A stretch of 64,000 nt of DNA from Nannocystis sp. (GTDB taxonomy: Bacteria; Myxococcota_A; Polyangia; Nannocystales; Nannocystaceae), in the NCBI RefSeq assembly GCF_016717175.1, contig NZ_JADKFZ010000004.1; one strand, 5' to 3'. A program made the translations under genes and the position numbers. The stretch's first letter is position 1, and the number at the start of each line of letters is the position of its first letter. Positions 19,312-37,433 of the stretch are shown in pieces. The notes beneath the pieces are model-generated. The model was given only the letters and a program-made list of their open reading frames with translations. It ran no database searches and had not been told where the DNA came from.

Positions 19312-20589
19312 ATGCCGTTCGTGATCGGGGATCCGCCGAGCGCCCTGCGCGTGCTTCGCCTCGCGGACGCGCGGACGGCCGGCAGCGAGCTGCAGCAGCT
19401 CGGCGTGACCACGCCCGCGCCGACCCTCGCGCTGGTCGGCGGGGCGGCGAGCCTGGGCGAGGCCGCCCAGGCGGTGCTGCGGCCGCTGTTCGTCGACGGC
19501 CTGGTGCCCGCGGTCGCGGCCCTGGCGGGGATCGTGGTCGACGGCGGCACGGCGGTGGGGGTGATGCGCCTGATCGCGGAGGCGCGCGCAGCCGCCGGGG
19601 CCCAGTTCCCGCTGATCGGCGTCGCGGCGGCGGGCCGCGTCTCGCTCGGCGACGGCGACGCGGGCCACGACACGGTCGCGGCCGAGCCGCGGCACAGCCA
19701 CCTGATTCTCGTCCCGGGCGATCGCTGGGGCGACGAGTCGCCGTGGCTGTCGGAGATCGTCGGGCTGCTCGCCGGGCCCGCGCCGTCGCTGACGGTGTGC
19801 GCCGGCGGCGGCGACATCACCGTCGAGGACCTCGAGAACAGCGTGGCGGCCGGGCGCGCGGTGATCTTGATCGAGGGCAGCGGCGGCACGACCGACGCGG
19901 TCGCGGCGGCCCTGACCACGCGGAGCGCGGACCCGCGGCTGCGTCGCCTGGCCCAGGCCGGCAAGTTTCGCGTCGTGCGCAGCCGCGACGGCGCGGCCGC
20001 GCTGCGGGCTGCGATCGAGGCGGAGCTCCAGCCCGGGGCGCAGGCGTGGCCCGGGCCGAAGCCGCCGGCGCCGGTGCTCGGCGAGGCGGGGCTGCTCGCC
20101 GCGATCGCGGCGCTGCAGCTGGGGGCGACGCAGGTCAATTACCTGAGCGCGCGCTGGCTCGACCAGGTGCGCTGGCTCGACGCCAAGGCGGTCCTGTGCC
20201 AGCGCCGCTACTACCGGTCGCGGCGCAGCATCCTCGTGTGCAGCGCGCTGGTGCCGGTGCTGCTGGCGGCGGCGGAGGGCTACGCGGCGCTGCAGATCGC
20301 CGCCGGCGGGCTCAGCCTGGTGGTGACGATCGCGGCGGGCTGGGAGGCGTTCTTTCGTTACGGCGATCGCTGGCGGCACTACCGGGCGATCGCGGAGCGG
20401 CTGCGGCGGGAGGGTTGGCTGTACATCGAGCGCAGCGGGCCCTACGCGGACTACCCGAGCCACGCCCGGGCCCACGCGGCCTTCGTCCTGAACGCGGAGC
20501 AGATCCTCGCCGACGACGTCGAGCAGTTCGTGTCGCGGATCGCCGCGGAGCCGCAGCGCGGGCAGAGCACGTCCGCCACACCGCCGTGA
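19312..20589 (+). CDS. SLOG (LOG/TRPM-like Rossmann nucleotide-binding) domain fused to C-terminal SLATT (DUF4231-like 2TM) domain
   Basis: LOG-family motifs VDGGTAVGVM (GGxxGxM) and IEGSGGTTDA (PGGxGTxxE); C-terminal two TM helices (ILVCSALVPVLLAAAEGYAALQ / LSLVVTIAAGWEAFF) followed by conserved RWRHYRAIAERLRREGWLY; monocistronic, convergent with nSTAND gene, 15 bp between stops. Confidence 0.65.
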   Translation: MPFVIGDPPSALRVLRLADARTAGSELQQLGVTTPAPTLALVGGAASLGEAAQAVLRPLFVDGLVPAVAALAGIVVDGGTAVGVMRLIAEARAAAGAQFPLIGVAAAGRVSLGDGDAGHDTVAAEPRHSHLILVPGDRWGDESPWLSEIVGLLAGPAPSLTVCAGGGDITVEDLENSVAAGRAVILIEGSGGTTDAVAAALTTRSADPRLRRLAQAGKFRVVRSRDGAAALRAAIEAELQPGAQAWPGPKPPAPVLGEAGLLAAIAALQLGATQVNYLSARWLDQVRWLDAKAVLCQRRYYRSRRSILVCSALVPVLLAAAEGYAALQIAAGGLSLVVTIAAGWEAFFRYGDRWRHYRAIAERLRREGWLYIERSGPYADYPSHARAHAAFVLNAEQILADDVEQFVSRIAAEPQRGQSTSATPP

Positions 20590-20604: not shown

Positions 20605-23600
20605 TCACTTCGCGTTGCAGCGGTCGACCTGCAGGGCGGGGCAGACGTGGGTCGACTGGCGGAGCAGCTGCTCGGCCAGCACGGACTCGTAGGAGTAGTA
20701 ACAGCCGGCCTCGATCACGTGGCACAGGGTCTGCTCGTAGCCGTCGTGCTTGTTGGCCGAGCGGCGCAGGGCGTCGAAGAAGAGGGCCTCGCACTGGAAG
20801 AACTCGTAGGTCTGCGGGCTCTGCGAGTAGAGGGGCTTGGCGTAGTCCTGGCGGGTGAAGACGATCCGCTGGTCGTTGCGGAGGCTGCACAGCAGGTGCT
20901 CGCGCCACGGCGTGAGGTCGCCTTCCTTCTGGAGCTCAGCGTCGGCCAGCGATCGCGGCTTGTCGCAGTCGAGGTCGCCTTTATTCTGCTCGGGGGGGAG
21001 GAGCGCGGAGAGCAGCTTCTCGGCTTCGCCGCGGCGCCCGGCCTGGACCAGGCGCCACCACAGCATCATGGCGACGTAGTGGCGGTCCTCGGTCGCGGTG
21101 CCGGCGATGAAGTCGCGGGCGTGGCCCTCGAAGCCGTCGCCGAGCAGCAGGTGGGCGAAGGCCGGGTGGAGCTCCGCGCCGGGGCCCTGGCCGCGAACGA
21201 CACGCAGCGGTCCGTCGGCGATCCGGGCGGCCTCGATGAGGTCGACGCGGAGCGCGAGGAAGGCGCGCAAGGTGAGGTCGTAGCTGGTCCTGTCGCTGTC
21301 AGGGCCGAGCGCGGCGCCGGCCTCGTCGTAGCAGCCGAGCATGCGCTCGGCGTCGGCGGTGAGCACCCGGCGCTGGGAGGCGCTGATCCCCGCGAGGCCA
21401 GGCGCCTTCAGCTGGGTCCGAAGGGCGCGCAGGCAGCTGCGCCGGACATCGCGGGGCTGCTGGAGGGCCCAGCTGAGCGCGAGCCGGGAGGCGCTGGGGG
21501 CCTTGTCCTTGAGCTGGGCGAGGGGGAGCGCGCAGGTCCGGGTGAAGGTCTCGAAGGCGCCGGGCTTGAGCAGGTTCTTGAGCAGGGTCTCGAGCAGCTC
21601 GGGTGGACCGCCGATCCGCTGGCGGGCGACCTCATCGGCGAGGGCCATGAGCGCCGCGTCGGGGAGGCGGTCCCTCGCCAGGTCGAGCATCAGCTGGGTG
21701 CAGCTGCGACTGTCGAACTCATTGCAGATGTCCAGGGCGCGGTCGTAGGCGGTGTCCCACGCGCCGATGCTCAGGTCGTCGGGCGCGGCGGCTGCGGCGG
21801 AGCGTCCGGCGCCCGCGCTCGCGGGCCCGCGCTCGCCGTTCAGGAGGCCCCGGATCTGGGCGCGGTAGCCGGGGAACTGGTTGCTCTCGAGGGCGGCGCG
21901 CAGGAGGTTGGTGCCGAGCATCAGGCCGGTGCGGGCGTCGCGGCCCGGGTCGGCGAGCGTGCCGAGGATCGTCGCGGGTTCGCGGCCGAGGTCCAGCAGA
22001 TCCTTGCAGACGCGGTCGAAGCCGTCTGGCGGGATGTGGTCCGCCAGGCGATCGAGCATCGTGCGCGAGAAGTGGCGCGAGAGATCGTCGAGCCGCTCGG
22101 GGTGCTCACCGCGGAAGCGACGCGGGTCGCCGAAGCACACGTGATCGAGGCGGGCCCGCAGCAGCTGGTCGACGGTGTCCGGGGCCGCGTAGTTGGCGAT
22201 GAAGTCCGGGCGTAGGTCGCCGCGCTTCGCCGCGGCCAGGAAGATCGCCGTGGCCTCGTCAGGATCGTCGTGGACGAGGGCATCGATGCCCTGGTCCGTC
22301 CAGCTCACGGTCGGGCGCGGCCCGGCCGGGTCAGCGCGCAGGAGATCGAGGAGCCCGGTCGCGGTGCAGGCCTGTGGGTCATTGGCCGCGGCGCAGTACA
22401 CGTGCCAGAAGGGCAGGCTGTGGAGCAGCCAGGGCAGCTGGTCGCGCGCCCGCTCCGGCTGCTCGCTGCGCCACCACAGCGCGCGCACGAGCGCGGGGAG
22501 GTCACGGGCCACGACCGGTTGGGCGAGCCACCGCTCGAGGCCCGGAGGATGATGGATGGCCGCGAGGAGCTCGCTCGCCGAGAGGTCGCCGAAGGGTCGC
22601 GGCGTCGGGATGCCGGCGAAGAGCATGTCGACGATCTCGTCGTGGCCGGGCGGCGGCGGGTCGTCGCAGTGATCATTCGCCGGCAGGTCGGGGTCGGGCC
22701 GGGTGGGGGTCGGCGCGTCCTCGGCGAGCCGGGCCGCGAGCTCGCTGGCCAGGAAGTCGCGCTGGCGGCCGCGGTCCACGGGTGGCACCTCGAGCGCGAG
22801 CAGCCAGTCGACCGCGGCGGGCCAGCGCTCGCCACGGAGGCCGTCGCGGGCCGCGAGGATGAAGGCCTCGCGCAGGCGACCCGCGAGCAGCTCGCGGACG
22901 TGGGGGCGACAAGCGGCGTCGTCGCGGCAGCTCGGTGACCAGCGCAGCGCGGCCTCGCTGGCCTGGCACTGCGCGCGTCGGTCGACCCGCGCGAGCATCG
23001 CCTCGACGAAGTCCGGCGTGACGTAGAGCGAGGGGTCGGCGGCGACGCGGGCGAACGCGGTGGTTGCGATCTCGGCGGCGCTCGCGGGATAGGTGGCGAG
23101 CTCGGGGTGCTGGCGTGCGAGCAGACGCCACAGCGGGGCGCTCCACGCCGCGGCGCGCCCCGGGTGACTCGCCGTGGGATCGTCGCCGGTGAGAAAGCCG
23201 GTGAGAGAACCGGTGAGAAAGCCGGACTCGCGGAGGAGCTTCCAGGGCAGCGAGGGCCGCTCGCGGTCTGGATCCGCGGTCGCTGGGGCCTCCGCCGCGG
23301 GGCGCCGCTCGCGGTCTGGATCCGCGGTCGCTGGGGCCTCCGCCGCGGGGTCGTGGAACACGGCGAGGCCCGGGCGCGGCGGGCCGGAGGGGAGGGTCAG
23401 GCGGACCGACAGCGCGCCGCCGTCGATCTCGAGCTTGAGCTCGTGGTCCGCGAGGCTCGCGTCGCGCCGGGCCAGGACGGCGAGCGGCACGGGGAGGTGG
23501 TGCTCGCGCCAGTGCTGGCCCGCCAGGTTGCGCCACAGCGCGACGATCGCCGGGGAGTCGGAGTCGTCGCCGCGGTGCACGATCGTCAGGGCGGCAGGCT

Positions 23601-25125
23601 TCGCGGGCGCCTGCGTCGGGTCGCAGGGGTCGCGGGGTCCGAGGACGGCGCGCCACACGAGGCCGCGGCGGAGGCCGGCGAGCAGGCCGGCGGTGGTCTG
23701 GCCGCGCAGGCGCCGGATGCTGGCGAAGCGACCGCGGCCCTCGAGCTCGAGGGCCCAGGTCCACAGGCTGCGGGTCGCGCTGTTCAGCTCATCGCAGCCG
23801 CTCGCCGAACGCACCAGCTCGAGCTGGGTCGCCTCCTCGGCGGCATCCCGGGAGATGAGCACGCTGAGCATGGCGATCGGCACGGCGATCACCGACAGGA
23901 CGATCGCGGCGATGACGGCACGGACCCGGGTGCGTTGCTTGCGGCGGGCGGCTGCGGCGACGCGGCCGAGCTCCTCCTCGACGAAGGGGCGCAGCACGCG
24001 GGTGAAGGCGTCGTGGAACAGCTCGACGACCTCGCCGCGGTCGCGGCGGTGGACGATGCGCTCGCGGTCGAGGTGGTCGAGCACTGCGTCGATGCGTGGG
24101 CGCGGGAGCCCCAGCTGGGACGCGAGGACGTCGACCGGGTAGGCCATGCGGACGCCGATCCGCGGCGCGAGCAGGCCGAGCACGCGGGCGGTGTCCTGGC
24201 GGAGCTGGCCGGTGAGCTCGCGGGTCGCGTCCGTCACGAAGGTGGCGACGATGCCGTCGCAGCCGCCGAGCTGGCGGTACAGCGCGAGGGTCAAGCGCGG
24301 CGCGGCGTCGCCGGCGACGGCGGCCCACAGGCGCCGGAGGACGATCTGCAGGAAGGGCAGGGAGATGCCCGCGGGCTGGCTCGTGTCGGTCTTCAGCCCG
24401 CTGGCGACCACGTCGCCGCGCAGGTCGAGCAGCAGCGCCTCGACCAGCCCTGGCTCGACCTCGCCGTGGAATTCGGGCAGGCGCGCGGGCTCGCGGATCG
24501 CCTCCTCGGCCTGCTTGCCGGCCAGCGGCCCCAGGCGGTAGACGGCCTGCGGGATCGTCAGGAAGTGCGGGCGCAGGGCCTCGAGGCTGGCGAGGTACTC
24601 CTCGCGCAGCGACAGCACCACGCGCACCGCTGTGTCGTTGCGCAGCAGCGACCCGAGCGCCGCGCCGAGAGCGTCGAGCTCGGCGGCGTGGCGGATGAAC
24701 ACCTGCTCGAACTGGTCGAGCACGAGGACCAGGCCCTGGGCGTGCGAGGCGGCGGCGAGGCGGGCGGCGGCGGGCAGGTCGCTCGCGCCGGCGCCGAGGC
24801 TCGCGACCAGCGCGGCCTGGATGCTCGCCAGCGGCGATCCGGCCCAGCTGTCGACGTAGACCGGGAGGGCCCCGAGCTCGCGCAGCGCCGGGACGATGAG
24901 GGTCCGCAGCAGCGAGCTCTTGCCGGCGCCGGAGGGCGCGACCATCACCGCCAGCGAGGTGGCGAGGATCGTGTTGCGGACCAGCTTGCCCTCGGGCTGG
25001 CGGCCGAAGAACAGGGCCCGCTCCGACTCGTCGTAGGGGCGCAGCCCGACGTAGGGGCCGGCCGGGCGCGGGCCGAGCGGGCGCGGGCCGAGCGGGCGCG
25101 GGCCGAGCGGGCGCGGGTCGGTCAC
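20605..25125 (-). CDS. nSTAND-type STAND NTPase with ~1000-aa alpha-helical C-terminal region
   Basis: GTG 25125-25123 overlaps upstream stop (GTGA); N-terminal PRPLG x3 then GPYVGLRPYDESERALFFGRQ, Walker A APSGAGKSSL, Walker B LVLVLDQFEQ; the first 515 aa of ORF-track entry 20605-26673 are an out-of-frame shadow of the TIR gene. Confidence 0.8.
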   Translation of the reverse strand: MTDPRPLGPRPLGPRPLGPRPAGPYVGLRPYDESERALFFGRQPEGKLVRNTILATSLAVMVAPSGAGKSSLLRTLIVPALRELGALPVYVDSWAGSPLASIQAALVASLGAGASDLPAAARLAAASHAQGLVLVLDQFEQVFIRHAAELDALGAALGSLLRNDTAVRVVLSLREEYLASLEALRPHFLTIPQAVYRLGPLAGKQAEEAIREPARLPEFHGEVEPGLVEALLLDLRGDVVASGLKTDTSQPAGISLPFLQIVLRRLWAAVAGDAAPRLTLALYRQLGGCDGIVATFVTDATRELTGQLRQDTARVLGLLAPRIGVRMAYPVDVLASQLGLPRPRIDAVLDHLDRERIVHRRDRGEVVELFHDAFTRVLRPFVEEELGRVAAAARRKQRTRVRAVIAAIVLSVIAVPIAMLSVLISRDAAEEATQLELVRSASGCDELNSATRSLWTWALELEGRGRFASIRRLRGQTTAGLLAGLRRGLVWRAVLGPRDPCDPTQAPAKPAALTIVHRGDDSDSPAIVALWRNLAGQHWREHHLPVPLAVLARRDASLADHELKLEIDGGALSVRLTLPSGPPRPGLAVFHDPAAEAPATADPDRERRPAAEAPATADPDRERPSLPWKLLRESGFLTGSLTGFLTGDDPTASHPGRAAAWSAPLWRLLARQHPELATYPASAAEIATTAFARVAADPSLYVTPDFVEAMLARVDRRAQCQASEAALRWSPSCRDDAACRPHVRELLAGRLREAFILAARDGLRGERWPAAVDWLLALEVPPVDRGRQRDFLASELAARLAEDAPTPTRPDPDLPANDHCDDPPPPGHDEIVDMLFAGIPTPRPFGDLSASELLAAIHHPPGLERWLAQPVVARDLPALVRALWWRSEQPERARDQLPWLLHSLPFWHVYCAAANDPQACTATGLLDLLRADPAGPRPTVSWTDQGIDALVHDDPDEATAIFLAAAKRGDLRPDFIANYAAPDTVDQLLRARLDHVCFGDPRRFRGEHPERLDDLSRHFSRTMLDRLADHIPPDGFDRVCKDLLDLGREPATILGTLADPGRDARTGLMLGTNLLRAALESNQFPGYRAQIRGLLNGERGPASAGAGRSAAAAAPDDLSIGAWDTAYDRALDICNEFDSRSCTQLMLDLARDRLPDAALMALADEVARQRIGGPPELLETLLKNLLKPGAFETFTRTCALPLAQLKDKAPSASRLALSWALQQPRDVRRSCLRALRTQLKAPGLAGISASQRRVLTADAERMLGCYDEAGAALGPDSDRTSYDLTLRAFLALRVDLIEAARIADGPLRVVRGQGPGAELHPAFAHLLLGDGFEGHARDFIAGTATEDRHYVAMMLWWRLVQAGRRGEAEKLLSALLPPEQNKGDLDCDKPRSLADAELQKEGDLTPWREHLLCSLRNDQRIVFTRQDYAKPLYSQSPQTYEFFQCEALFFDALRRSANKHDGYEQTLCHVIEAGCYYSYESVLAEQLLRQSTHVCPALQVDRCNAK
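25060..25112. repeat. 15-bp tandem repeat x3.5 (cgagcgggcgcgggc) encoding PRPLG repeats at the N-terminus of the nSTAND gene
   Basis: Direct inspection. Confidence 0.7.
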
Positions 25126-27203
25126 GCGGGTCTCCGGGCCCGCAGGGCGCGGACGAGGGTCGGGAGTTCGATCGAGCTCATGTCGACGTGGAACTGCTCC
25201 CACAGCCGCTGCTCGAGCGTCGAGGCGGGCTCGCGCACGGCGAGCGCACCGCTGCGGCGATCGTCGTCGCGGGCCGCTTCGCGCTGGAGTCGCGGCTCGC
25301 GGCGGAAGAACGCGTGCCCGATCAGGCGATAGTGCCAGATGTCGAGGTTGAAGCCGAGGAACAGCAGGCGCCGGGTGTAAAGCTGCAGGGCGAAGGCGCT
25401 GGGGATCGTCGTGTGCTGGTGCTCGAGCTGGGCGAGGAAGGTGATGTGGTCGCTCTCGGTGATCACGACGGTGTCGAGCTCGCGGTCGCGGACGGCGGGG
25501 TGCTCGGCGAGGAAGGGCGAGCCGAGCAGCTTGTAGATGACGCAGTCGTCGTCGTCGATCTCCGCCTCGAGCTCGGAGGTCAGGCGGACGGCGGCCGCGG
25601 TCGCGGGGTCCCGGCCGCGGGGGTGATGCGCGCTGCGCAGGAGCAGCGCCTTGCCGACGTCGTCGCCGGCCGAGCGGAGGATGTGGCTCACGAGCACGTA
25701 CGGGCGCCCGGCCTCGTCGAGGGCGCGCTCGAGCTCGAGGTCGTGGGTCGTGGAGATCACGAACCATGGCGGCTTCATGTCGAGGATCATGTCGAACGCC
25801 GCCGGCGGCGCGAGCTGGGCCGGTCCGCCGAGGATCTCGCGCAGATCGGCGAGGAAGGGCTGGCGGCGGCGCTCGAACTGCAGCGCCTCCGCGGCGGCGG
25901 CCATCGTCGGGTTGTGGCCGGCGCCGAGGCCGGCGCGCTCGCTGAGCTGCTTGACGATGGCGTAGTAGTTGCGCTGCGAACCGTCCCAGATGCCGTCGCC
26001 GAGGAAGGGGATGAGCTCGCCGCGCCAGAACACCGGGGCGATGCGGTCGACGAACTGTTGCTGCAGCGGGTGGAGCTTGATGTCGGCGAGCACGCTGCCG
26101 CTGCGGCGGCGCAGCTGCATCTCGCTCGGCTTGGTGTTGAAGACCAGCGGCAGGACGCCCTCGCCGAGGGCGACCTGGATCGCCTGCAGGACCTCCTCGA
26201 CGGTGCTGATGCCGTCGTGGTTGCTGTCGGCGGCGTCGTTGCTGAGCGCGTGCAGCAGCAGCCCGGTCAGGGGGCTGTGCGCGTCCTGCCAGGCCTCGGG
26301 GCGCGCCGCCGGGCCCGCGCTGGTGGCCAGCAGGACCTTGCCCGGGCCGGGCCCGAGCTGGGTGCGCAGCTGGGCCTCGACCTCGGCCTTCGCGGTGTCG
26401 CCGTAGCAGGCGTCGAGGACGATGAAGAGGTGGCCGACCTGGGTCTGGTCGAGGAACATCTGCTTGATCAGCGCGAGCGAGACGCCGGCCGGGAGCTCGC
26501 TGTTGCGGGCGGGGAGGAAGGGGCCGAAGCCGGTGAAGCTGACGTGGCCGGCGAAGTACAGCAGGACGAAGTCGTCGTGGCTGGCCGGCGCGAGCAGGTC
26601 GGCGATCGCCCGCATCAGCTGGCGGCCGTCGGGGTCGACGAGGCTGACGACCTCGAACTCGCACTCGGGCCACGTGAGCGCCTCGGCGAGGCGCAGGACG
26701 TTGCGCTCCGCGGCCGGCAGCGCCGGCGCGTCCGCGCCGCGGGACAGCGCGACCAGCAGGGCACGCCGGCCGCTGCGCTTCGGCGCGGACGCGGTGGTCG
26801 CGGGCGGGGCGGCGAGCCAGGCCCGGATGTCCGCGACGAGCTTGCGAAAGGCCGGGGCGCCGCGGTCACCGATCCAGTCGATGAGGTCGATGGTCTGGAT
26901 CTGGTCGTAGGGCTTGGGCGGCGCGACGGGGTCGAGGCGGACCGGGACCAGGACGCCGCGTCGTCGGCCCTCGTCGGCCTCGGAGCGGATCCAGGTCCGC
27001 TGCTCGTCGATCGCGTGCCGCGACCACAGGACGACCACGCAGGCGGCCCGCTCGACCCGCGCCTGCAGCTCGCCGGCGTAGGCCGTGCCGGCGCGGAGGT
27101 CGGCGTCCCACCACACGTCGAGGCCCTCGTCGCGCAGGGCGGTGACGAGGGCTAGGGCGCGCTCGCGATCCTCGCTCGCGTGGCTGACAAAGACCTGGGA
27201 CAT
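25122..27203 (-). CDS. Triple-domain effector: TIR + caspase-like (C14/CHAT) + SIR2-like (SIR2_2 family)
   Basis: TIR: VFVSHASEDRERALALVTALRDEGLDVWWD..CVVVLWS; caspase dyad LLYFAGHVSF / LFIVLDACYGDT; SIR2_2 blocks LIPFLGDGIW, WFVISTTHDLELERAL, VIYKLLGSPF, VVITESDHITFL, LLFLGFNLDIWHYRL. Confidence 0.8.
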   Translation of the reverse strand: MSQVFVSHASEDRERALALVTALRDEGLDVWWDADLRAGTAYAGELQARVERAACVVVLWSRHAIDEQRTWIRSEADEGRRRGVLVPVRLDPVAPPKPYDQIQTIDLIDWIGDRGAPAFRKLVADIRAWLAAPPATTASAPKRSGRRALLVALSRGADAPALPAAERNVLRLAEALTWPECEFEVVSLVDPDGRQLMRAIADLLAPASHDDFVLLYFAGHVSFTGFGPFLPARNSELPAGVSLALIKQMFLDQTQVGHLFIVLDACYGDTAKAEVEAQLRTQLGPGPGKVLLATSAGPAARPEAWQDAHSPLTGLLLHALSNDAADSNHDGISTVEEVLQAIQVALGEGVLPLVFNTKPSEMQLRRRSGSVLADIKLHPLQQQFVDRIAPVFWRGELIPFLGDGIWDGSQRNYYAIVKQLSERAGLGAGHNPTMAAAAEALQFERRRQPFLADLREILGGPAQLAPPAAFDMILDMKPPWFVISTTHDLELERALDEAGRPYVLVSHILRSAGDDVGKALLLRSAHHPRGRDPATAAAVRLTSELEAEIDDDDCVIYKLLGSPFLAEHPAVRDRELDTVVITESDHITFLAQLEHQHTTIPSAFALQLYTRRLLFLGFNLDIWHYRLIGHAFFRREPRLQREAARDDDRRSGALAVREPASTLEQRLWEQFHVDMSSIELPTLVRALRARRPA

Positions 27204-27347: not shown

Positions 27348-27785
27348 CTACGGCGAGCTTCGCCGGCGCCGCAGGAGGGGCGTGAGGAGGAGCAGCAGGA
27401 AGGGGGCGGCGGGCGTCCCGGGAGCCACGCGGCAGCCGCTCGTGGTCTTTGCCGGTTGAGACGCCGCGGGGTCTGGCGCTTGTGTCGCTGGCGTCTGCGA
27501 TGCCGGGGTTTGTGATGCCGGCGCTGGTGCTGCCGGCGGGGCCCCGGCCTGACAGCGCAGGCAGTCGTGGCTGACCACCTCGGGCGGCGTGCCCTTCGAG
27601 TAGTCGAGGCGGGAGCAGCGGTCCGCGACGCAGGTCCCGGGGCCGCCGCGGAAGTCGCAGGCGTCGCCGGCCTTGCTGGCGCCGCAGACGAGGTCCTCCG
27701 GGGGCGGCGCCTCGTCGGCGCGGGCCGATGCGGGCAGGACGAGGGCGGCGAGTACGAGGATTGGGAGCGGGAGGCGGGTCGGCAT
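27348..27785 (-). CDS. Small secreted Cys-rich protein with MYXO-CTERM sorting signal
   Basis: Signal peptide MPTRLPLPILVLAALVLPASARA; C-terminal ..SGCRVAPGTPAAPFLLLLLTPLLRRRR (GC + hydrophobic + basic = MYXO-CTERM-like). Confidence 0.6.
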   Translation of the reverse strand: MPTRLPLPILVLAALVLPASARADEAPPPEDLVCGASKAGDACDFRGGPGTCVADRCSRLDYSKGTPPEVVSHDCLRCQAGAPPAAPAPASQTPASQTPATQAPDPAASQPAKTTSGCRVAPGTPAAPFLLLLLTPLLRRRRSSP

Positions 27786-27890
27786 GTCTGTGGATATCTC
27801 CGGGGCTGGGTCGATTAGCGAGGTGGTGCTCATGCGGAGTCGGCGTGGAGCAGGGCCCGGAGGCAGGGGATGACGCCGCGAAGTTGGGGC

Positions 27891-28385: not shown

Positions 28386-28400
28386 GCGGCGCCTCCCCGG

Positions 28401-28490
28401 TGGCGCGGCCGAGAAGGGTGGCGCGGCCGAGAAGGGTGGCGCGGCCGAGAAAGGTGGCGCGGCCGAGAAGGGTGGCGCGGCCGTGGAGAA
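28401..28490. repeat. 18-bp tandem repeat x5 (tggcgcggccgagaaggg)
   Basis: Direct inspection; lies in the 5' leader (or N-extension) of the tsaA-like gene. Confidence 0.8.
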
Positions 28491-28609: not shown

Positions 28610-28715
28610 GACTCGCTTTGTCCGGACTTGCTTTGTCTGGACTCGCTTTGTCCGGACTTGCTTTGTCTGGACTCGCTTTGTCCGGACTCGATTTGTTCGC
28701 ACTCGCTTGGGGGGC
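28610..28715. repeat. 15-bp tandem repeat x7 (ggactcgctttgtcc / ggacttgctttgtct alternating, i.e. 30-bp unit) in a divergent intergenic region
   Basis: Direct inspection; GGAC...GTCC termini; no spacers so not CRISPR. Confidence 0.8.
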
Positions 28716-29475: not shown

Positions 29476-31518
29476 GTGCGTGAATGTGCGGAGCTGGAGA
29501 TCGGGCTGTCGCGGCGCGACGCGGGGTCGTACGCGGTCGAGCTGCGCTTCACGCAGCCGGGCAGCGACGCCGATGTGCGGGTCGGCGAGGGCGAGGGGCT
29601 GGCCTGCGCGCTGGATCTGGCGGGCCTCAAGGAGCTGCTGGCGCAGCCGGAGGCGTACGGGCGGGCGCTCGGGGCGGGCCTGTTCGCGGCGCCGAAGGTG
29701 GCCGAGACGCTGGCCCGCGCCCAGGCGGCGGCCGCCAGTCAGGACCTGCCGCTGCGCGTGCGCCTGGCGATCGCGGTCGACGTGGCCGAGCTGCACGGGC
29801 TGCGCTGGGAGCTGCTGCGGACGCCGGACGGGACCCTGGTCAGCGCGGGCGAGCGGATCTTGTTCTCGCGTTACCTTGCGAGCGTCGACTGGCAGACGGT
29901 CAAGCTGCGGCCGCAGGCGTCGCTGCGGGCGCTGATCGTGATCGCTGCGCCGGCCGGGTTGGCGGCGTACGGGCTGGCGGAGCTCGACGTCGCGGCCGAG
30001 CTGGCGCGCGCGCAGGCGGTGCTGGCGGGGATCGAGACGGTGGCGCTGGCGGGGCCGGGTCAGGCGACCGCGACGGCGATCATCGACGCGCTGCGCAGCG
30101 GCTTCGACGTGCTGTACGTGGTGGCGCACGGGTCGTGGCAGCGTGGTGAGGCGTTCGTGTGGCTCGAGGACGCGGCCGGCGCGGTGGCCCGGATCGCCGG
30201 GGCCACGCTGATCGCCCGGGTCGCCGAGCTGCAGCAGCGGCCGCGGCTGTGCGTGCTGGCCTCGTGCGAGAGCGCGGGCGCGGGCGCGGGGGAGGACCCC
30301 GCGGTGCTGGCCGCGCTCGGGCCGGGGCTGGCGCGCGCCGGGGTGGCGGCGGTGGTGGCGATGCAGGGCCCGCTGAGCGTGGCGACGGCGGCGGTGTTGC
30401 TGCCGCGGCTGTTCGCGGAGTTGTTGCAGGACGGGCAGGTCGATCGGGCGCTGGCGGTCGCTCGCGCGGCGGTCCGTGAGCGGAGCGACTGGTGGATGCC
30501 GGTGCTGTTCATGCGCCTGCGCTCGGGACGGATCTGGTACACGCCGGGCTTCGGCGGCGAGGGCGGGCAGTTCGAGAAGTGGCCGGCGCTGCTCCGCAGC
30601 ATCGCCCAGGGGCGCTGTACGCCGGTGCTCGGGCCGGCCCTCGGCGACGCGCTGCACGGGTCGTCGCGCGAGCTGGCCCACCGCTGGGCCGACGAGTACG
30701 GCTACCCGATGGCGCCGGGCGGGCGCGAGGATCTGCCGCACGTGGCGCAATACCTGGCGGTCCACCAGGACGAGCGGTTTCCGATGGACAAGCTCGAGGG
30801 GTCGCTGCGCGACGCGGTGGTGTCACGATTCCCGCAGGTGCTCACGGGGGGCGCGGGCGAGGGCACGCTCGACGAGGTGCTGGCGCGGGTGGCCGACTGG
30901 CGGCTGGCGCAGGGGAGCTTCGATCCGTACCAGGTGCTCGCGCGGCTGCCGTGTCCGCTGTATGTGACGACGGCGAGCGACGGGCTGCTGGCGCATCACC
31001 TGCGTCTGGCGGGTCGTTCACCGCAGGTCGCGCTGTGCCCGTGGAACCCCGACGTGGTGGCCGACGCGGCCGTCGCCGAGGCGGCGAGCGTGGAGCGGCC
31101 CGCGATATATCACCTGTTCGGGCATATCTCGGCCCCGAACTCGCTGGTGATCACGGAGAACGATATCTTCGACTTCTTGATCAGCGTGAGCGCGGATCGC
31201 GAGGTGATCCCGCCGCGGGTGCGGGCGGCGCTGGTCGACTCGTCGCTGCTGATCCTCGGGTTTCCGATCGACGATTGGAAGTTTCGCGTGTTCTTTCGCA
31301 GCCTGATGAACCGGGCCGGCGGGGGCCGGCGCAAGCGCTACACGCACGTGGCGGCGCAGATCGATCCGGAGGAGGCGCAGACGATCGACCCGGCGCGCAC
31401 GCGGCGTTACCTCGAGGAGTACTTCGAGGGCTCGGACATCACGATCTATTGGGGCAGCGCGGAGGACTTCCTGCGCGAGCTCGCCGGGCGGCTGCCGGGG
31501 GGGAGGCCGGGCGCTTGA
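29476..31518 (+). CDS. CHAT (caspase-like) + SIR2-like (SIR2_2) fusion effector
   Basis: CHAT dyad YVVAHGSWQRGE / CVLASCESAGAG; SIR2_2 blocks VLGPALGDALHGSS, LYVTTASDGLL, IYHLFGHIS, LVITENDIFDF, LLILGFPIDDWKFRVFF; GTG start. Confidence 0.8.
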   Translation: MRECAELEIGLSRRDAGSYAVELRFTQPGSDADVRVGEGEGLACALDLAGLKELLAQPEAYGRALGAGLFAAPKVAETLARAQAAAASQDLPLRVRLAIAVDVAELHGLRWELLRTPDGTLVSAGERILFSRYLASVDWQTVKLRPQASLRALIVIAAPAGLAAYGLAELDVAAELARAQAVLAGIETVALAGPGQATATAIIDALRSGFDVLYVVAHGSWQRGEAFVWLEDAAGAVARIAGATLIARVAELQQRPRLCVLASCESAGAGAGEDPAVLAALGPGLARAGVAAVVAMQGPLSVATAAVLLPRLFAELLQDGQVDRALAVARAAVRERSDWWMPVLFMRLRSGRIWYTPGFGGEGGQFEKWPALLRSIAQGRCTPVLGPALGDALHGSSRELAHRWADEYGYPMAPGGREDLPHVAQYLAVHQDERFPMDKLEGSLRDAVVSRFPQVLTGGAGEGTLDEVLARVADWRLAQGSFDPYQVLARLPCPLYVTTASDGLLAHHLRLAGRSPQVALCPWNPDVVADAAVAEAASVERPAIYHLFGHISAPNSLVITENDIFDFLISVSADREVIPPRVRAALVDSSLLILGFPIDDWKFRVFFRSLMNRAGGGRRKRYTHVAAQIDPEEAQTIDPARTRRYLEEYFEGSDITIYWGSAEDFLRELAGRLPGGRPGA

Positions 31519-34500
31519 CCGCGACGTCGCCAGCAGGCTCGCCGGCAAACCCGTACGTCGGTCCGCGGGCGCTGCGGAGCGGGGAGGCGCTGTTCGGCCG
31601 CGACCGCGAGGTGGCGCGGCTGTTCGACCTGATGCTGGCGGAGCGCATCGTGCTGCTGTATTCGCCGTCGGGCGCGGGCAAGAGCTCGCTGCTGCAGGCG
31701 GGGCTGGTCCCGCGACTGCACGCCGAGGGCTTCACGGTCCGGCCGGTCGTGCGGGTCGGGATGGCGCCGCCGAGCGACGCGCCGGCGGGGGTCAATCGTT
31801 ATGTGCTGAGCACCTTGCTGAGCCTGGAGGAGGATGTCCCGAAGGACAGGCAGCTCGACCTCGCCGCGCTGGCGGGGTGCACGCTCGCGGCGTACCTCTC
31901 GCGGGGGTCCGAGGCGGACGCCGACGAGGTGCTGTTGATCGATCAATTCGAGGAGCTGCTGACGGTCGACCCGACGGCGGTGGCGGCGAAGCGGGTGTTC
32001 TTCGCCCAGCTCGGCGAGGCGCTGCGGGACACCCGGTTGTGGGTGGTGGTGGCGATGCGCGAGGACTTCATCGCCGGGCTCGACCCGTACCGGGCGGCGG
32101 TGCCGAAGAAGCTGCACACGACCTTTCGCCTCGAGCTGCTCGGGCGCGAGGCGGCGCTGCTGGCCGTGCGGGGGCCGGCTGCAGCGGCAGGGGTGACCTT
32201 CGAGCTCGCGGCGGCGGAGCGGCTGGTCGACGACCTGCGACAGGTGCGGGTGCCGATCGTCGACGGCGGCGTCGAGCTGCGACCGGGGCCGCACGTCGAG
32301 CCGGTGCAGCTGCAGGTGGTTTGTCGCGGGCTGTGGGCGGCGTTGCCGGCGGACGATCGCAGCATCGGGCTCGCCGACCTGGCCGAGCTCGGCGACGTCG
32401 ACCAGGCGCTGGCCCGCTACTACGACGCGCAGGTCCTGGCGGCCGCGCGCGCGAGCGGGGCGCCCGAGCGGGCCCTGCGGCTGTGGCTCGAGCGCGAGCT
32501 GGTGACGGTCCAGGGGCTGCGCACGCAGGTGCTGCGCACGCCGGGGGCGACGCAGGGGCTCGGCGACGCGGCCCTGACGGCGCTGATCGACTCGCTCGTG
32601 CTGCGCAGCGAGACGCGCCGCGGGATGATGTGGGTCGAGCTGGCGCACGACCGCATCGTCGCGCCGCTGCGGGCGAGCAACGCGGCGTGGATGGCGAAGA
32701 ACCTCGCGCCGACCTCGCGGCAGGCGGCGCTGTGGGACAGCCGCGGGCGCCCGGAGTCGCTGCTGCTGGCGACGGCGGCGGAGGCCGAGGCGCTGCTCGC
32801 GGCGGCGGGGGAGTGGACGGCGACCGAGCGGCTGTTCCTCGAGCAGAGCCGGATCGTCCGCCGGCGCGAGGCGGCGACGCGGCGTTATCAGCGGACGATC
32901 CGCGTGCTCGCGGCGGTGGTGGGGCTGCTGGTCGTGGCCGGGCTGTCGGTCGGGATCGTGCTGATCCGGCGGGCCGCGGCGGCGGCGCTGGAGGAGGCCG
33001 AGCAGGAGGCGAGGGCCAGCGCCGAGGCGGCCGCGCGCGCGCAGGCCGAGCAGCGCGCGGCGGAGCAGGCGTTGATCCGTCAGCTCATCGCCCAGGTCGC
33101 GCTGTACCGCGAGCAGCAGCCCGAGCTCGCGGCGCTGCTGGCCGTCGCGGCCTCGACGCGGCTCGCGGACCCGTGGCAGCGCAAGGCGGCGCTGCTCAAC
33201 GCCGCGGTGACGCAGCCGCAGCTGCGGTCGCGGCTGGCCTCAAGGCCAGGTGACGATGGGGCGGGCCCGGCGGCGTTCGTGCAGATCGCGGCGGCGGGCG
33301 GGCAGCTGTACGCGCTCGATCGCCGCGGGCAGGTGCTGCGCCTCGGGCTCGAGGATCGCGGGCAGGCCTCGCTGCTGCCGGCGGGGACGAGGGCCGGGGA
33401 CTTCGCGGCGGACCCGGTGCGCGAGCGCGTGGCGATCGTCGCGGGTCAGGCGATTGAACTGTGGGAGGTCGGGGCGACGACGCCGACGGCGAGCTTCGTG
33501 CTGCCCGCGGATCCGGCGGGGCTGGGCGACGCGCCGCGGCCGGACGCGCGGGTGTGGCTCGAGGGGCTCGGCTTCTCGGCGGACGGTCGCACGCTCGCGG
33601 TCGTGCGCCGTCGCAGCGACGGGCCGAGCCGCGGCTTCGTGATCGACGTCGAGGCGCGATCGATCCGGCCGCTCACGGGCAAGTTGCCGGTGTCGGCGCT
33701 GGCACTGGCGCCCGACGGCGCGCTGGCGGTCGCGGGGCTGCTCGCGGTGGACGGGTCGATCGTCGTGTTCTCGGGGCCGACGCTGGCGCGCGGTGTGCTG
33801 ACGCCGGGTCACGCGGATGTCGGGCGGGTGTACCTCGCCCGCTTCGATCCGCATCGGCCGCGGCTGCTGACCGCGGGCGAGGGCGGGGCGGCGACGCTGT
33901 GGACGGTCGAGGGCGGGACGCTGAGCGCACCGCGGCCGCTCCCGCTGGGCGGCGGCAACGTCCGGGACGCGCTGTTCCTCGCGGACGGCAAGCTGGTGAT
34001 CGCCACGGAGACGCGGATCTCGGTGTGGAGCGGCGAGCCAGAGACGCCGTGGGGGAGCCCGATCACGCCGCCGACGCGGGCGACGGCCACGCTCGCGGCG
34101 GTCGGCGCGGACGGGCTGCAAGTCGCGGTGGTGTCGCTGGCCGACGCGCCGATCCACGTGTTCGACCCGCGGCGGCTGGCGCCGTGGCAGCTGGCGGCGC
34201 CGCGGGTGCCGATGACCGAGGGCGGCGACGCGGCGTTTCAAGGCGTGGCCCCGCGGGTGGCGATCGACCGGGCGGGTGCGCGGGTCGCCGCGACGAGCTT
34301 CGACCGGCGCGAGGGCGGCCGGGTGACCGTGCTCGACGTGGCCAGCGGGAGCTCCGTCGTCACGGCGGCGGGGCAGGGCGAGCAGTTCATGGCCCTGGCC
34401 TTCGCCGACGCCGGCAAGCTGGTGGCGATCGATGCGGCCGGGGCGGTGACGGCGTGGACGGTCGCGGGCGGCGCGGCGCAGACGCTGTGGAAGCTGCCGC

Positions 34501-35298
34501 AGCGGCCGCTGCGGGTCGCGCTGGCGGTCGATCCAGCGGGCCTCGCGGTGGCGGCGGGCGTGGCGTTCGGGGCGACGAGCGTGACGCTGATGGCAGAGCA
34601 AGCGGTGGGGACGGAGCCCTCGCCGCGCACGAGCACGATCGCGGCCGGGGTGCCGATCACGGCGCTGGCCCTCGATCACGCGGCGGAGCGCCTCGCGGTG
34701 GCGACCTGCAGCGAGCGGATCGGCCTGGCGACGTGCGCACGCGGCGAGGTCCGGGTGTACGCGGTCGCCAGCGGGGCCGAGGTCGCGGGTCCGCTGGCGG
34801 TCGATGGCGTGCACGGGCTGGTGTTCGCGGCCGACGGTCGACGCCTCGCCGGGCTCGTGCCCGGCGCGCCGCCGGTGGTGTGGGAGCTCGCCGACGGCGA
34901 GCGCCTCGCGTTGACGGTGCGCCGCTCGCTCGGCGAGTTCATCGCGGCCGACTTCTCCGCGGACGGCGACGTGCTGCTCGCCAGCGCCGAGGCCGACAAC
35001 GCAGCGGTGGCGCTGACGCTGTGGGATCTGCGCTCCGGCGAGGGGCTGGCGCCGCCGCTGGTCGCCCACAACCCCGCGGTCGGCAGCTTCGATCCGGGGG
35101 CGCAGCGGTCCGTGCTGCTGGCGGCGCACAGCGGGCTGGTGGTCAGCAGCAGCTTCGACGGGGTGCTGCTGTGGGATATCGCCGACGCGACGCTGACGAG
35201 CCGCGCGTGCACGCTGGCGGGGCGCGAGCTGACGAGCGCGGAGTGGACGAGGTTCCTCGGCCGCGGCGAGCCGCAGCAGGCGCAATGCGGCGCGCCGC

Positions 35299-35577
<279 letters not shown>

Positions 35578-35762
35578 GCGGCAGGCGGGCACGGCTCCGC
35601 ACGGGCGCTCGGGCTCGGCACGCGCGCGCTGAAGCGCTACCATGCGCGCAGCGAGACCGCTTGCGACAGCCGCTTGACCTCGACACCGAACACCACCGAT
35701 CTCCCGATCTGCGGGCCGCTCTGGCGAGCCTGGCCGATCAGGGAGAGACCGAGCGCGGGGCC

Positions 35763-37433
35763 GTGTTCACGCGGCCTGAGGTGGTCGCCTGCCTCCTCGA
35801 TCTCGCGGGGTACACCGTCGACCAGCCGCTGCATACCTGGCGGATCCTCGAGCCGTCGTTCGGCGCGGGTGACTTCTTGCTCGCGGCGGTCGAGCGCCTG
35901 CTGACGTCGTTCGCGGCGTTCGGGGGCCTGCCGAGCGCGGCGCTCCAGCTGCGCGAGGCGGTGCGGGCGGTCGAGGTGCACCCGGCGTCGTTCGCCGCGA
36001 CGCGCGAGGCGCTCCACTGGCGCCTGGTCACGTGGGGCGCGAGCCGACGCGATGCGGGGGCGTTGTGTGACAGCTGGCTGCTGCGCGACGACTTCCTGCT
36101 GGCGCAGCTGACTGGGCGCTTTGATGTCGTGGTTGGCAACCCGCCCTACGTGCGACAGGAGCGGATCGCGGGGCCCTTGCTCGCGGAGTACCGTCGGCGC
36201 TACGCGACGATCTACGACCGGGCGGACCTGTATGTGCCGTTCTTCGAGCGCGGGCTGCAGCTGCTGCGGGACGGCGGGCGGCTCGCGTTCATCTGCGCCA
36301 ACCGCTGGCTCAAGAACAAGTACGGCGGGCCGCTACGCGGCATGATCGCCCGCGACTTCCACCTCTCGCACTACATCGATATGGCGGGCACCGATGCGTT
36401 CCAGTCGGAGGTCATCGCGTACCCGGCGATCACGGTGATCCGCCGCGGCGAGGGCAGCGTGACCCGGCTCGCGCGGAGGCCAGACGTCACGACGGAGCTG
36501 TGCGAGCTGACGCGCCTGCTGAGCGCACCCGGTCCCGTGCTCGACGAGCGGGTCGAGGAGGTGGAGCACGCGGTCCGCGGCAGCGAGCCGTGGCTGCTCG
36601 ACGCCGCCGATCAGCTGCGCGTGATCCGTCGGCTCGAGCGCGACTTCCCGGAGGTCGAGGAGGCCGACTGCAAGGTGGGGATCGGCGTGGCGACCGGCGC
36701 CGATCGGGTGTTCATCGGCGACCACGCGGCGCTGCCCGTGGAGGACTCGCGCAAGCTGCCGCTGCTGATGGCGCGTGACCTTCAGGACGGCGCGATCGTC
36801 TGGGGCGGCAAGGGCATCGTCAACCCGTTCGAGGCGGACGGCAGCCTGGCCTCGCTCGACCGCTATCCGGCCTTCGGCGCGTACATCCGCGAGCACGCGG
36901 ACGTGCTTTGCAAGCGCCACGTCGCCCGGAAGAGCCCGAGCTGGTACCGCACGATCGACCGCGTGTACGCCGAGCTCACCGGCACGCCGAAGCTGCTCAT
37001 CCCGGACATCAAGGGCGAGCCGATGGTCGTGTTCGACGAGGGCAAGTTCTACCCGCACCACAACCTGTACTACGTGACCTCGTCGACCTGGGACATGACG
37101 GCGCTGGCGACGGTGCTGCGCTCGTCGATCGCGGTGCTGTTTGTGTCGACGTACTGCGTGAAGATGTCGGGCGGCTTCCTGCGCTTCCAGGCCCAGTACC
37201 TCCGGCGGATCCGTGTCCCGCGCTGGCAGGACGTGACGAGGGCCCAGCGCGCCGCGCTGATCGCCGCGGCGCCGACCGACCGCGCGGCGATCGATCACGC
37301 CGCGTTCGCGGCCTACGGGCTCACGGCCGCGGAGGCCCGGACGGCGCAGCGGGCGGCGAGCGCGGCGCTGGTGCAGGGGCGGGCCTCGGTTGATCCCGCG
37401 CTGACGCCGGCGAGCACCCTGGCTATCTCTTGA
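35763..37433 (+). CDS. Gamma-class N6-adenine DNA methyltransferase (Eco57I/TaqI-like) with C-terminal TRD
   Basis: Motif [15 protein letters not shown], motif [11 protein letters not shown]-terminal TaqI_C-like region; probable GTG start 35763 (upstream Arg-rich stretch of ORF 35499 looks non-coding); no REase domain or adjacent REase gene. Confidence 0.7.

Follow-up and report, generated by a model that had tools for sequence, protein, structure and literature searches.

How can an effector be tied to its switch when the two are encoded by separate genes? STAND and NLR switches are usually described as single chains consisting of an effector, an NTPase and a sensor, or as chains joined by small homotypic adaptor domains. 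The question is raised by two overlapping genes in a 64,000-nucleotide (nt) stretch of Nannocystis sp. DNA (contig NZ_JADKFZ010000004.1; G+C content of ~73%), the whole of which is referred to below as the window. Gene A is predicted to encode a protein with TIR, caspase-like and SIR2-like domains, and gene B an nSTAND1 NTPase with a putative transmembrane helix (Table 1). An earlier note on this DNA had read the pair as a split NLR/Avs-like sensor and effector and the product of gene A as a triple effector. The overall reading of a split pair fits the evidence presented here; the three-headed effector, judging from sequence comparisons, should give way to two effectors followed by a fossil enzyme that serves as an adaptor, which we call dSIR2 for a putatively dead SIR2-like domain. 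The proposed coupling of effectors to nSTAND1 NTPases by a dead SIR2 domain is a recurrent and apparently undescribed wiring.

The overlapping gene pair and its effector domains

The coordinates and lengths of the two open reading frames (ORFs) and their GTGA overlap are as the earlier note had given them. By direct reading, the junction is GGAGACCCGC-GTG-A (...CGC GTG A...), in which the TGA of gene A shares a 4-nt overlap with the GTG of gene B, and a GGAG lies 6 nt upstream of that GTG. In genomes as GC-rich as this one the coding frame can be read from third-position G+C, which is at least 0.85 throughout both genes; the frame that it indicates changes exactly at 25125/25126. Inspection of the translation reveals no alternative start codon between the GTG of gene B and its PYVGLRPY motif, and the same start position is found in two NCBI-annotated relatives, the near-identical P0021 of Nannocystis and the 85% identical P0022 (MTDPRP.../MNDPRP...). 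Third-position G+C, the lack of another start and the annotation of the relatives all argue against an NTPase start far downstream, the case that the earlier note had named as a refutation. The start position of gene A is kept in P0001-P0003, and the gene pair with its 4-nt overlap is kept in orthologues of 39-47% identity (L001-L003), a conservation far beyond chance. The overlap, the frame switch and the retention of the pair in orthologues support the translational coupling of genes A and B, which are a coherent and conserved two-gene system.

In the profile search that the earlier note had called for, the TIR_2, Peptidase_C14, SIR2_2 and nSTAND1 domains are all recovered with scores above the Pfam cut-offs. 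In alignments to the TIR structures of Brucella TcpB/BtpA, the counterpart of the predicted catalytic Glu of gene A is the conserved Glu of W-x-x-x-E. The caspase dyad, H220 (in FAGH) and C266 (in LDACYG), is invariant among gene A and its aligned full-length relatives, and the GH motif aligns with YYAGHG of MALT1. The caspase-like domain also matches the NCBIfam model caspase_w_EACC1 with an E-value of 2.8e-17 and 62.9 bits, which is below the cut-off of 140; it is internal in gene A and preceded by the TIR domain, whereas the caspase of EACC1 systems is at the N-terminus of the second protein. As far as their sequences tell, the TIR and caspase domains of gene A are a payload with intact catalytic residues. 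The TIR-caspase-dSIR2 orthologues of Zoogloea (L010-L022 and L026-L032) possess LDCI(Y/F)S, with Ile at the position of the catalytic Cys of gene A, and in two of them (L018 and L021) the caspase His is replaced with Asn (YYCGNAK). The caspase active site of the Zoogloea orthologues, which retain the TIR Glu, appears to be partly degenerate, and their protease may lack activity.

Table 1. Predicted genes, domains and repeats of the window, with positions in the window and the basis of each assignment
Feature	Position	Strand	Basis or remark
Gene A, TIR - caspase-like - dSIR2 protein, 693 aa, ATG start	25122..27203	minus	ORF, Pfam, third-position G+C
Gene A, TIR_2 domain, aa 4-122	26838..27194	minus	Pfam E-value 1.7e-21, 77 bits vs cut-off 28
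Gene A, predicted catalytic Glu of TIR, E75	26979..26981 (codon)	minus	Invariant in orthologues
Gene A, caspase-like Peptidase_C14 domain, aa 146-342	26178..26768	minus	Pfam E-value 1.3e-8, 35.3 bits vs cut-off 21.4
Gene A, putatively dead SIR2-like (dSIR2) C-terminal module, aa 372-693	25125..26090	minus	Pfam SIR2_2 and profile alignments
Junction: GGAG Shine-Dalgarno 25135-25132; gene B GTG 25125-25123; gene A TGA 25124-25122	25122..25135	minus	Sequence reading
Gene B, nSTAND1 NTPase - transmembrane helix - orphan C-terminal region, 1506 aa, GTG start	20605..25125	minus	Translation, Pfam
Gene B leader, 15-bp tandem repeat, 4.2 copies, encoding PRPLG x3 + PRPAG	25055..25117	minus	Tandem Repeats Finder
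Gene B, nSTAND1 NTPase module, aa 24-376	23998..25056	minus	Pfam E-value 3.3e-43, 149.2 bits vs cut-off 27.1
Gene B, predicted single transmembrane helix, aa ~401-424, AVIAAIVLSVIAVPIAMLSVLI, preceded by RRKQRTRVR	23854..23925	minus	Hydropathy
Gene B, orphan C-terminal region, aa 431-1506, presumed sensor	20608..23835	minus	No Pfam match
Gene B C-terminal region, recent duplications, 48-bp x2 and 12-bp x3.4	23256..23350 and 23185..23225	minus	Repeat scan
Paralogous effector gene, CHAT + putatively dead SIR2_2 (YHLFGH, TTASD), 680 aa	29476..31518	plus	Pfam CHAT 7.1e-25, SIR2_2 1.3e-16
Paralogous nSTAND1 - transmembrane helix - WD40 propeller NTPase	31515..35342	plus	Pfam nSTAND1 2.4e-37, WD40; helix aa 466-484
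Third CHAT gene	60065..62068 (locus 58821..62068)	minus	CHAT E-value 1.4e-17
SLOG(LSDAT_prok)-DUF4231/SLATT protein, two transmembrane helices, membership uncertain	19312..20589	plus	Pfam 2.2e-56 and 8.1e-25; NCBIfam SLATT_1
Small secreted Cys-rich protein, MYXO-CTERM signal	27348..27833	minus	TIGR03901 21.6 bits vs cut-off 20; 144 nt upstream of gene A
TrmO-like gene, 18-bp x4.7 repeat (AAPPFS)	28399..28483
15-bp x6.6 repeat, intergenic or 5' region after TrmO-like gene	28610..28708
Eco57I-like methylase with TaqI_C specificity domain, directly after second module	35499..37433	plus
cNMP-binding patatin phospholipase	3946..6126	minus
Ser/Thr kinase with FG-GAP repeats	43049..47407	plus

The SIR2-like domain and its nSTAND1 partners

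That the C-terminal part of gene A is SIR2-like, as the earlier note had it, is borne out by a Pfam SIR2_2 match at aa 482-673 (E-value of 5e-10; 40.1 bits against a cut-off of 24.5), and a profile of the domain matches the SIR2 of KomC with an E-value of 1.6e-6. The motifs identified in gene A are IPFLGDGIW, STTHD (Asn replaced with Thr486), YKLLGSP (His replaced with Leu560), DTVVITESDH and LLFLGFNLDIWHYRL. In the HMMER alignments to the solved SIR2 of KomC (catalytic H146; IYTTNYD) and to ThsA, Thr486 occupies the position of the Asn and Leu560 is bracketed at that of the catalytic His; in the paralogue of the second module of the window, the His of ThsA YKMHGD is matched directly by Phe. 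The NAD-binding loop GAGxS is LGDGIW in gene A, which retains the two glycines but not the Ser. In none of 23 family members, drawn from the window, from metagenomes and from 18 genomes, is the position of the catalytic His occupied by His, and only four keep the Asn of TTNxD. His is also lacking in almost all of the top ~95 of 148 representative clusters, where Leu is the commonest residue; the residues found at the lost His position in the dSIR2 group are Leu, Val, Met, Phe, Gln and Pro. Other polar residues are near-invariant in the family, such as D585-H586 in TE(S/T)DH. In a Foldseek search with a low-confidence AlphaFold2 (AF2) model of dSIR2, built from six sequences (predicted local distance difference test score, pLDDT, of 55; predicted template modelling score of 0.49), the top matches are all defence SIR2 domains (DSR2, KomC, ThsA and Avs5), with template modelling scores of only ~0.35. 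Because both the Asn and the His are gone and the replacement of the latter is hydrophobic, NADase activity of dSIR2 is unlikely, and the alignments indicate that the SIR2-like domain of gene A is probably no third effector.

The composition of the family points the same way. An exhaustive HMMER search of 1.84 billion representative proteins with the dSIR2 profile yielded 110 clusters at E-values of 1e-30 or lower. In nearly all of the best 150 matches dSIR2 is the C-terminal end of the protein, and the few exceptions look truncated or chimeric. The modules N-terminal to it vary: among 84 representatives they are Peptidase_C14 (35), DUF4062/NIR (24), TIR_2 (14) and CHAT (5), and trypsin, EAD1 and EAD5 are also found; DUF4062 has recently been shown to be an NADase effector, named NIR. 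As a constant and always C-terminal module to which varying effectors are attached, dSIR2 behaves as a coupling module and not as a third warhead. It is this constancy, together with the replacement of the catalytic Asn by Thr486 and of the catalytic His by Leu560 and the absence of the His from all 23 relatives, that speaks against the triple effector. The order TIR-caspase-dSIR2 is found in 13 of 23 examined members, including many Zoogloea species and metagenome-assembled genomes of Polyangiaceae and Casimicrobiaceae, and the architecture is thus not rare. The impression that the three-domain protein is almost unique, given by a word-indexed search with three full-length matches, was rejected as an artefact of sensitivity, as a genome scan found 27 loci.

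In the more distant matches of the dSIR2 profile, the canonical states GAGAS, TTNYD and YKMHGS reappear, which indicates that the catalytic loss is specific to the dSIR2 group. Stand-alone proteins of ~300 aa with intact SIR2 motifs are followed by an nSTAND1 gene in both cases tested (L033 and L034). Four representatives of 819-908 aa (P0122, P0135, P0137 and P0152) consist of an N-terminal nSTAND1 and a C-terminal SIR2, and two of them (P0122 and P0135) possess both the Asn and the His. The SIR2 of these fusions occupies the usual place of the sensor domain. Only this reverse order was found: the search of 1.84 billion proteins returned no single-chain fusion of dSIR2 followed by nSTAND1. 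The pairing and fusion of intact SIR2 relatives with nSTAND1 suggest an ancestral pair of a SIR2 NADase and an nSTAND1 protein. In this likely origin, the active SIR2 would have lost catalysis after new effectors had been fused to its N-terminus, and would have been kept as a coupling module.

The partner of dSIR2 is remarkably constant. An nSTAND1 gene lies directly after the dSIR2 or SIR2 gene in all 34 loci examined. The dSIR2 profile identified 27 genome loci, and in each of them the distance from the stop to the start of the following gene is between -10 and +30 nt. These 27 partner genes begin with a short variable leader, which is followed by PYVG[LMI][RK]P[YF]...FFGR and then by Walker A; all 15 partners sampled are nSTAND1 proteins by Pfam. 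The pairing is also found in the metagenomic loci L001-L005 and in both copies of the window, and 4-nt overlaps (ATGA, GTGA or TTGA) recur in distant family members. The second copy in the window, a CHAT-dSIR2 gene and its NTPase gene, is located 2 kb from genes A and B on the opposite strand, and the TTG start of its NTPase gene overlaps the TGA of the CHAT-dSIR2 gene (TTGA). The two pairs of the window are 20% (dSIR2) and 28% (NTPase) identical and are the most divergent from each other, and genes A and B are closer to pairs of Betaproteobacteria or Acidobacteriota than to the second pair of the window. Over 30 pairs, the pairwise identities of dSIR2 and nSTAND1 co-vary, with a Spearman coefficient of 0.90 overall and 0.75 below 60% identity. 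This co-variation and the divergence of the two pairs of the window suggest that the dSIR2/nSTAND1 pairs evolve and move as units.

Gene B has no N-terminal effector of its own, as the earlier note had stated; only a 23-aa leader precedes its nSTAND1 module. The motifs of the module are PYVGLRPY, Walker A (S65-G-A-G-K69-S-S71) and Walker B (D137-Q-F-E140), of which S65, G66, G68, K69, S71, D137, Q138, F139 and E140 are invariant in 15 partner NTPases. The three PRPLG repeats before PYVGLRPY, to which the earlier note had drawn attention, are present, but their significance did not hold up: three units are found in gene B, two in P0021 and none in P0022, and this variation among close relatives identifies them as a slippage polymorphism of a strain-variable 15-bp microsatellite and not as a conserved motif. 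Among the 27 related NTPases the leaders show no relationship in either sequence or length, and this, together with the variable copy number, ruled out PRPLG as a docking motif.

Downstream of the NTPase module, gene B contains a purely hydrophobic stretch of 24 residues (mean Kyte-Doolittle value of 2.76 for the 19-mer), which is predicted to be a transmembrane helix. The N side of the helix has six positive and no negative charges and the C side one positive and four negative charges, and every partner NTPase examined has a hydrophobic helix with a basic N-flank at this place. Cys residues number 22 in 1084 positions of the C-terminal part against one in 403 of the N-terminal part. The helix, its flanking charges and the Cys counts fit an N-in/C-out receptor with an extracytoplasmic sensor. 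The orphan C-terminal region is mostly helical by prediction, its only homologues found are the Nannocystis-like P0021 and P0022, and its 1076 aa are 100% identical to those of P0021 (annotated as "nSTAND1 domain-containing NTPase, Nannocystis sp."); AF2 modelling from a three-sequence alignment gave no usable fold for these 1076 aa (pLDDT of 35). The repeats within gene B are absent or fewer in P0022, the 85% identical relative.

Comparison with known systems, proposed mechanism and rival explanations

Among described systems, genes A and B come closest to the nSTAND1 and EACC1 conflict systems, which are computational predictions (Kaur, Burroughs, Iyer, Aravind 2020 eLife PMC7159879; Kaur et al. 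2021 eLife PMC8195603). Both rely on an nSTAND1 NTPase that is often extended by a transmembrane helix and, at its C-terminus, by a propeller or another variable domain. Both employ caspase-like and TIR effectors, which may be encoded separately upstream of the NTPase gene, and both show a preference for myxobacteria, actinobacteria, cyanobacteria and other aggregating bacteria. Many proteins of the form nSTAND1+TM+BetaPropeller are listed in the source data of 2021, where split forms such as TIR+DrHyd-> nSTAND1+TM+BetaPropeller and TIR-> nSTAND1+TM are common (PMC8195603 supplement); DrHyd appears to be the name given to DUF4062 by Kaur et al. The split itself is thus not new for nSTAND1, and the "unusual arrangement" of the earlier note is unusual relative to Avs but not for nSTAND1, for which separate upstream effector genes are common (Kaur et al. 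2021) and 34 loci paired with dSIR2 or SIR2 are reported here. The commonest published form is fused, EACC1-> CASPASE+nSTAND1+TM+BetaPropeller, and "caspase+nstand1" occurs 256 times in the text of the supplement (PMC8195603); in contrast, the caspase and the NTPase are here on separate polypeptides and the effector protein ends in a putatively dead SIR2. The nSTAND1 systems of Kaur et al. (2021) link the effector to the NTPase by fusion or by a homotypic EAD/bDLD pair, whereas the link proposed here is the C-terminal dSIR2: no Pfam match to an EAD or Death-like domain is found in gene A or gene B, and the leader of gene B is the 23-aa product of a Pro-rich microsatellite. The caspase-only relatives L005 and L009 have an upstream EACC1 gene, which ties the dSIR2 family to the EACC1 system. 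The EACC1 two-gene system (System 4) differs in its 5' gene for a single-helix EACC1 membrane protein, as none is present in the window.

"SIR2" does not occur in the main text of Kaur et al. 2020 (PMC7159879). In the 2021 supplement file with the nSTAND1 neighbourhood table, "SIR2" occurs seven times and the strings SIR2+nSTAND1, nSTAND1+SIR2, Caspase+SIR2 and TIR+SIR2 do not occur (PMC8195603). No prior description of a dead SIR2 coupled to nSTAND1 was found in the literature searched, the coverage of which is incomplete and no proof of absence.

Several other systems share parts of this arrangement. Avs (AVAST) proteins combine effector, STAND NTPase and repeat sensor on one polypeptide, unlike the separate ORFs described here, and PADLOC has no Avs model that matches either protein; its best match to gene B is mad8, with an E-value of 0.0048. 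Avs5 and SAMD9 resemble the present pair in that a SIR2-fold domain is directly N-terminal to a STAND NTPase and functionally attached to it. SAMD9 possesses a "variant Sir2-like domain" next to its NTPase (PMC5445408), and the filament of EfAvs5 is built by its SIR2 and NOD domains, which are in contact (PMC11897194); the two proteins are a structural precedent for a SIR2 fold that works against a STAND NTPase. Both are single polypeptides, and Avs5 is an nSTAND3 protein with SIR2 as an active NADase effector, whereas the SIR2 of gene A is on a separate protein, lacks the Asn and the His and carries other effectors, and its NTPase is an nSTAND1 with a transmembrane helix. Under the mechanism proposed below, the pair would also resemble the Apaf-1/caspase-9 apoptosome and the NLR inflammasomes, where STAND sensor and caspase effector are on different chains, a non-catalytic adaptor module joins the chains and the effector is activated by induced proximity; different from these, a degenerate enzyme fold would pair heterotypically with the NTPase in place of a homotypic Death fold, and a TIR is present on the effector chain. 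Type IV Thoeris (Rousset et al. 2025) likewise pairs a TIR whose catalytic Glu is intact with a caspase-like protease that retains its His/Cys dyad, but its two proteins are stand-alone, its signal is N7-cyclic ADP-ribose (N7-cADPR) and it has no STAND NTPase, whereas gene A joins the TIR and the caspase in one chain and is genetically tied to an nSTAND1 gene. The PADLOC models of ThsB match gene A weakly (E-values of 0.03-0.06), and a caspase model matches with an E-value of 5.6e-5.

We propose, and consider reasonably probable, that genes A and B constitute a two-gene NLR-like conflict module for abortive infection or programmed death, with a TIR and caspase payload, dSIR2 as adaptor and gene B as switch and sensor. 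The product of gene B would consist of a cytoplasmic nSTAND1, one membrane-spanning helix and a large, fast-evolving C-terminal region; it would sense a cue and oligomerise upon NTP binding. The dSIR2 domain might dock on, or co-polymerise with, the NTPase encoded downstream, such that nSTAND1 oligomers would cluster dSIR2, bring the TIR and caspase domains close to each other and activate both, with depletion of NAD+ or signalling plus proteolysis as the presumed outcome. Translational coupling would help both proteins to be made together. Activation by induced proximity is established for TIR NADases and caspases in other systems. Several points weigh against this proposal. The contact between dSIR2 and nSTAND1 is putative, and the structural models, all of monomers, are poor (pLDDT of 55 and 35); the co-variation of the two may reflect the mere joint inheritance of adjoining genes. 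The Gly-rich loop and the Asp of TTNxD are kept in dSIR2, so that the domain might still bind a nucleotide, and the loss of the His is by itself no proof of inactivity, given that PaAvs5-1 is an active NADase in which NG replaces HG and the Asn of TTNxD is essential (bioRxiv 10.1101/2025.07.08.663546). The C-terminal region of gene B is probably outside the cytoplasmic membrane, a prediction from hydropathy, charge and Cys counts only, and the partner NTPases of Zoogloea show no Cys enrichment. PADLOC gives no system-level match and holds no model for genes A and B, and no experimental test of the dSIR2 family or of any nSTAND1 system was found in the literature searched.

A more specific version of this module is tentative. 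In it, the periplasmic Cys-rich C-terminal region of gene B would sense an extracytoplasmic cue, for which phage adsorption, envelope damage and contact with non-kin are candidates; the signal would pass through the single helix to the nSTAND1, which would nucleate a fossil-sirtuin scaffold that fires the TIR and the caspase. We think it improbable that gene A instead works in cis in a manner like that of type IV Thoeris, with dSIR2 binding an NAD-derived product of the TIR and switching on the caspase allosterically and with the NTPase triggering only the TIR: although TIR, caspase and dSIR2 occur together in 13 of 23 relatives, dSIR2 is equally frequent without TIR, in the company of caspase alone, DUF4062 alone, CHAT or trypsin, its sole universal partner is the nSTAND1 gene, and the ThsB and caspase models of PADLOC match weakly. 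The SIR2_2 domain might also be a third active NADase with non-canonical catalytic residues. Its Pfam score above the cut-off, the exchange of the canonical His for Asn in PaAvs5-1 and the new near-invariant polar residues such as D585-H586 would agree with such an enzyme; nevertheless, the Asn (to Thr or Ser in most members) and the His (to hydrophobic residues) are both lost, the former being essential in PaAvs5-1, the distant matches that keep both residues make the loss group-specific, and a domain that stays constant while true effectors are swapped has the signature of a scaffold, for which reasons a third active domain seems quite unlikely.

A different partner for the TIR domain would be the adjacent SLOG-SLATT gene, whose product might read a diffusible signal made by the TIR and act as the pore-forming executioner of a three-gene, Thoeris-like system. 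Isomers of cADPR made by TIRs are bound by SLOG domains in Thoeris of types I and III, and type VII Thoeris uses SLATT as its effector (bioRxiv 10.64898/2025.12.03.692087). In the window, 15 nt separate the end of the SLOG-SLATT gene from the stop of gene B, and in Geomonas azotofigens (L007 6713..7303) a DUF4231/SLATT gene is directly upstream of a DUF4062-dSIR2 gene. The SLOG-SLATT gene is, however, convergent with gene B and belongs to a separate transcript, a search within 8 kb detected no SLOG or SLATT at the other 30-odd loci, among them L001 and L006, the closest of the TIR-caspase-dSIR2 loci, and such fusions are self-contained modules in other contexts; its participation is hardly to be expected. 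Finally, decay of the locus into adjacent ORFs that no longer form a working system would be in keeping with the several recent tandem duplications within gene B, the possibly decayed third copy at 58821..62068 and the fragmentation of the related locus L004. It is contradicted by two ORFs that are intact over 2.1 and 4.5 kb with a strong codon-position bias throughout, by the intact catalytic and Walker motifs and by orthologues at 85-95% identity that keep the same structure, and we regard it as very improbable.

For the preferred two-gene module, the dSIR2 family suggests a third solution to the wiring of effectors to STAND switches, in which a former NADase effector has been fossilised as a heterotypic adaptor on a separate polypeptide, to which effectors of at least six types have become attached, among them TIR, caspase, CHAT, trypsin and the NIR/DUF4062 NADase. 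If correct, this would be a concrete and testable case of the conversion of an effector to an adaptor, would hint at a structural role of the "variant" Sir2-like domains beside STAND NTPases, as in SAMD9, and would offer a tractable entry to the nSTAND1/EACC1 conflict systems of multicellular bacteria. It would also provide a rule for annotation, by which a SIR2_2 match that lacks the Asn and the His and is located upstream of nSTAND1 is no NADase. Should the transmembrane version hold, it would bear on the question of transmembrane sensing by some bacterial NLR-like proteins, and the pair would parallel receptor-adaptor-caspase death signalling in a bacterium, with a converted enzyme as the adaptor and general socket into which six or more types of effector can be plugged.

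Neighbouring genes and further observations

The genes around the two modules give the region the look of a conflict-gene island. The MYXO-CTERM signal of the protein encoded at 27348..27833 marks the host as a myxobacterium. The SLOG-SLATT gene was considered as a conserved third gene of the system and rejected, as it is not conserved and a SLATT neighbour is found at only one other locus (L007). In L005 and L009, a gene for a single-helix EACC1 protein occupies the upstream position that the DUF4231/SLATT gene has in L007, and small membrane proteins recur beside dSIR2/nSTAND1 pairs. No EACC1 was detected near gene A, either as a match to the small secreted protein encoded at 27348..27833 or by tblastn of the window with the EACC1 of L005. 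A tblastn search of a plasmid collection returned only an unrelated TIR, and a scan for sigma-70 promoters and terminators gave nothing informative.

Two further loci may be decayed. In an ENA metagenome contig (L004 3384..6083), a caspase/dSIR2/nSTAND1 locus is split into several short ORFs beside a DDE transposase, a sign of either pseudogenisation or frameshifts in the assembly. In the window, the C-terminal 330 aa of the third CHAT gene contain, by eye, the degenerate dSIR2 motifs LVLGGSGA, FRLYGGYSP, LTEDDH and VLEWRHRML, and an ORF past its stop has a sub-threshold nSTAND1 match (E-value of 0.026); the locus at 58821..62068 may be a decayed third copy of the bipartite module. Young in-frame tandem repeats are unusually dense in the region and are located at 23185..23350, 25055..25117, 28399..28483 and 28610..28708.

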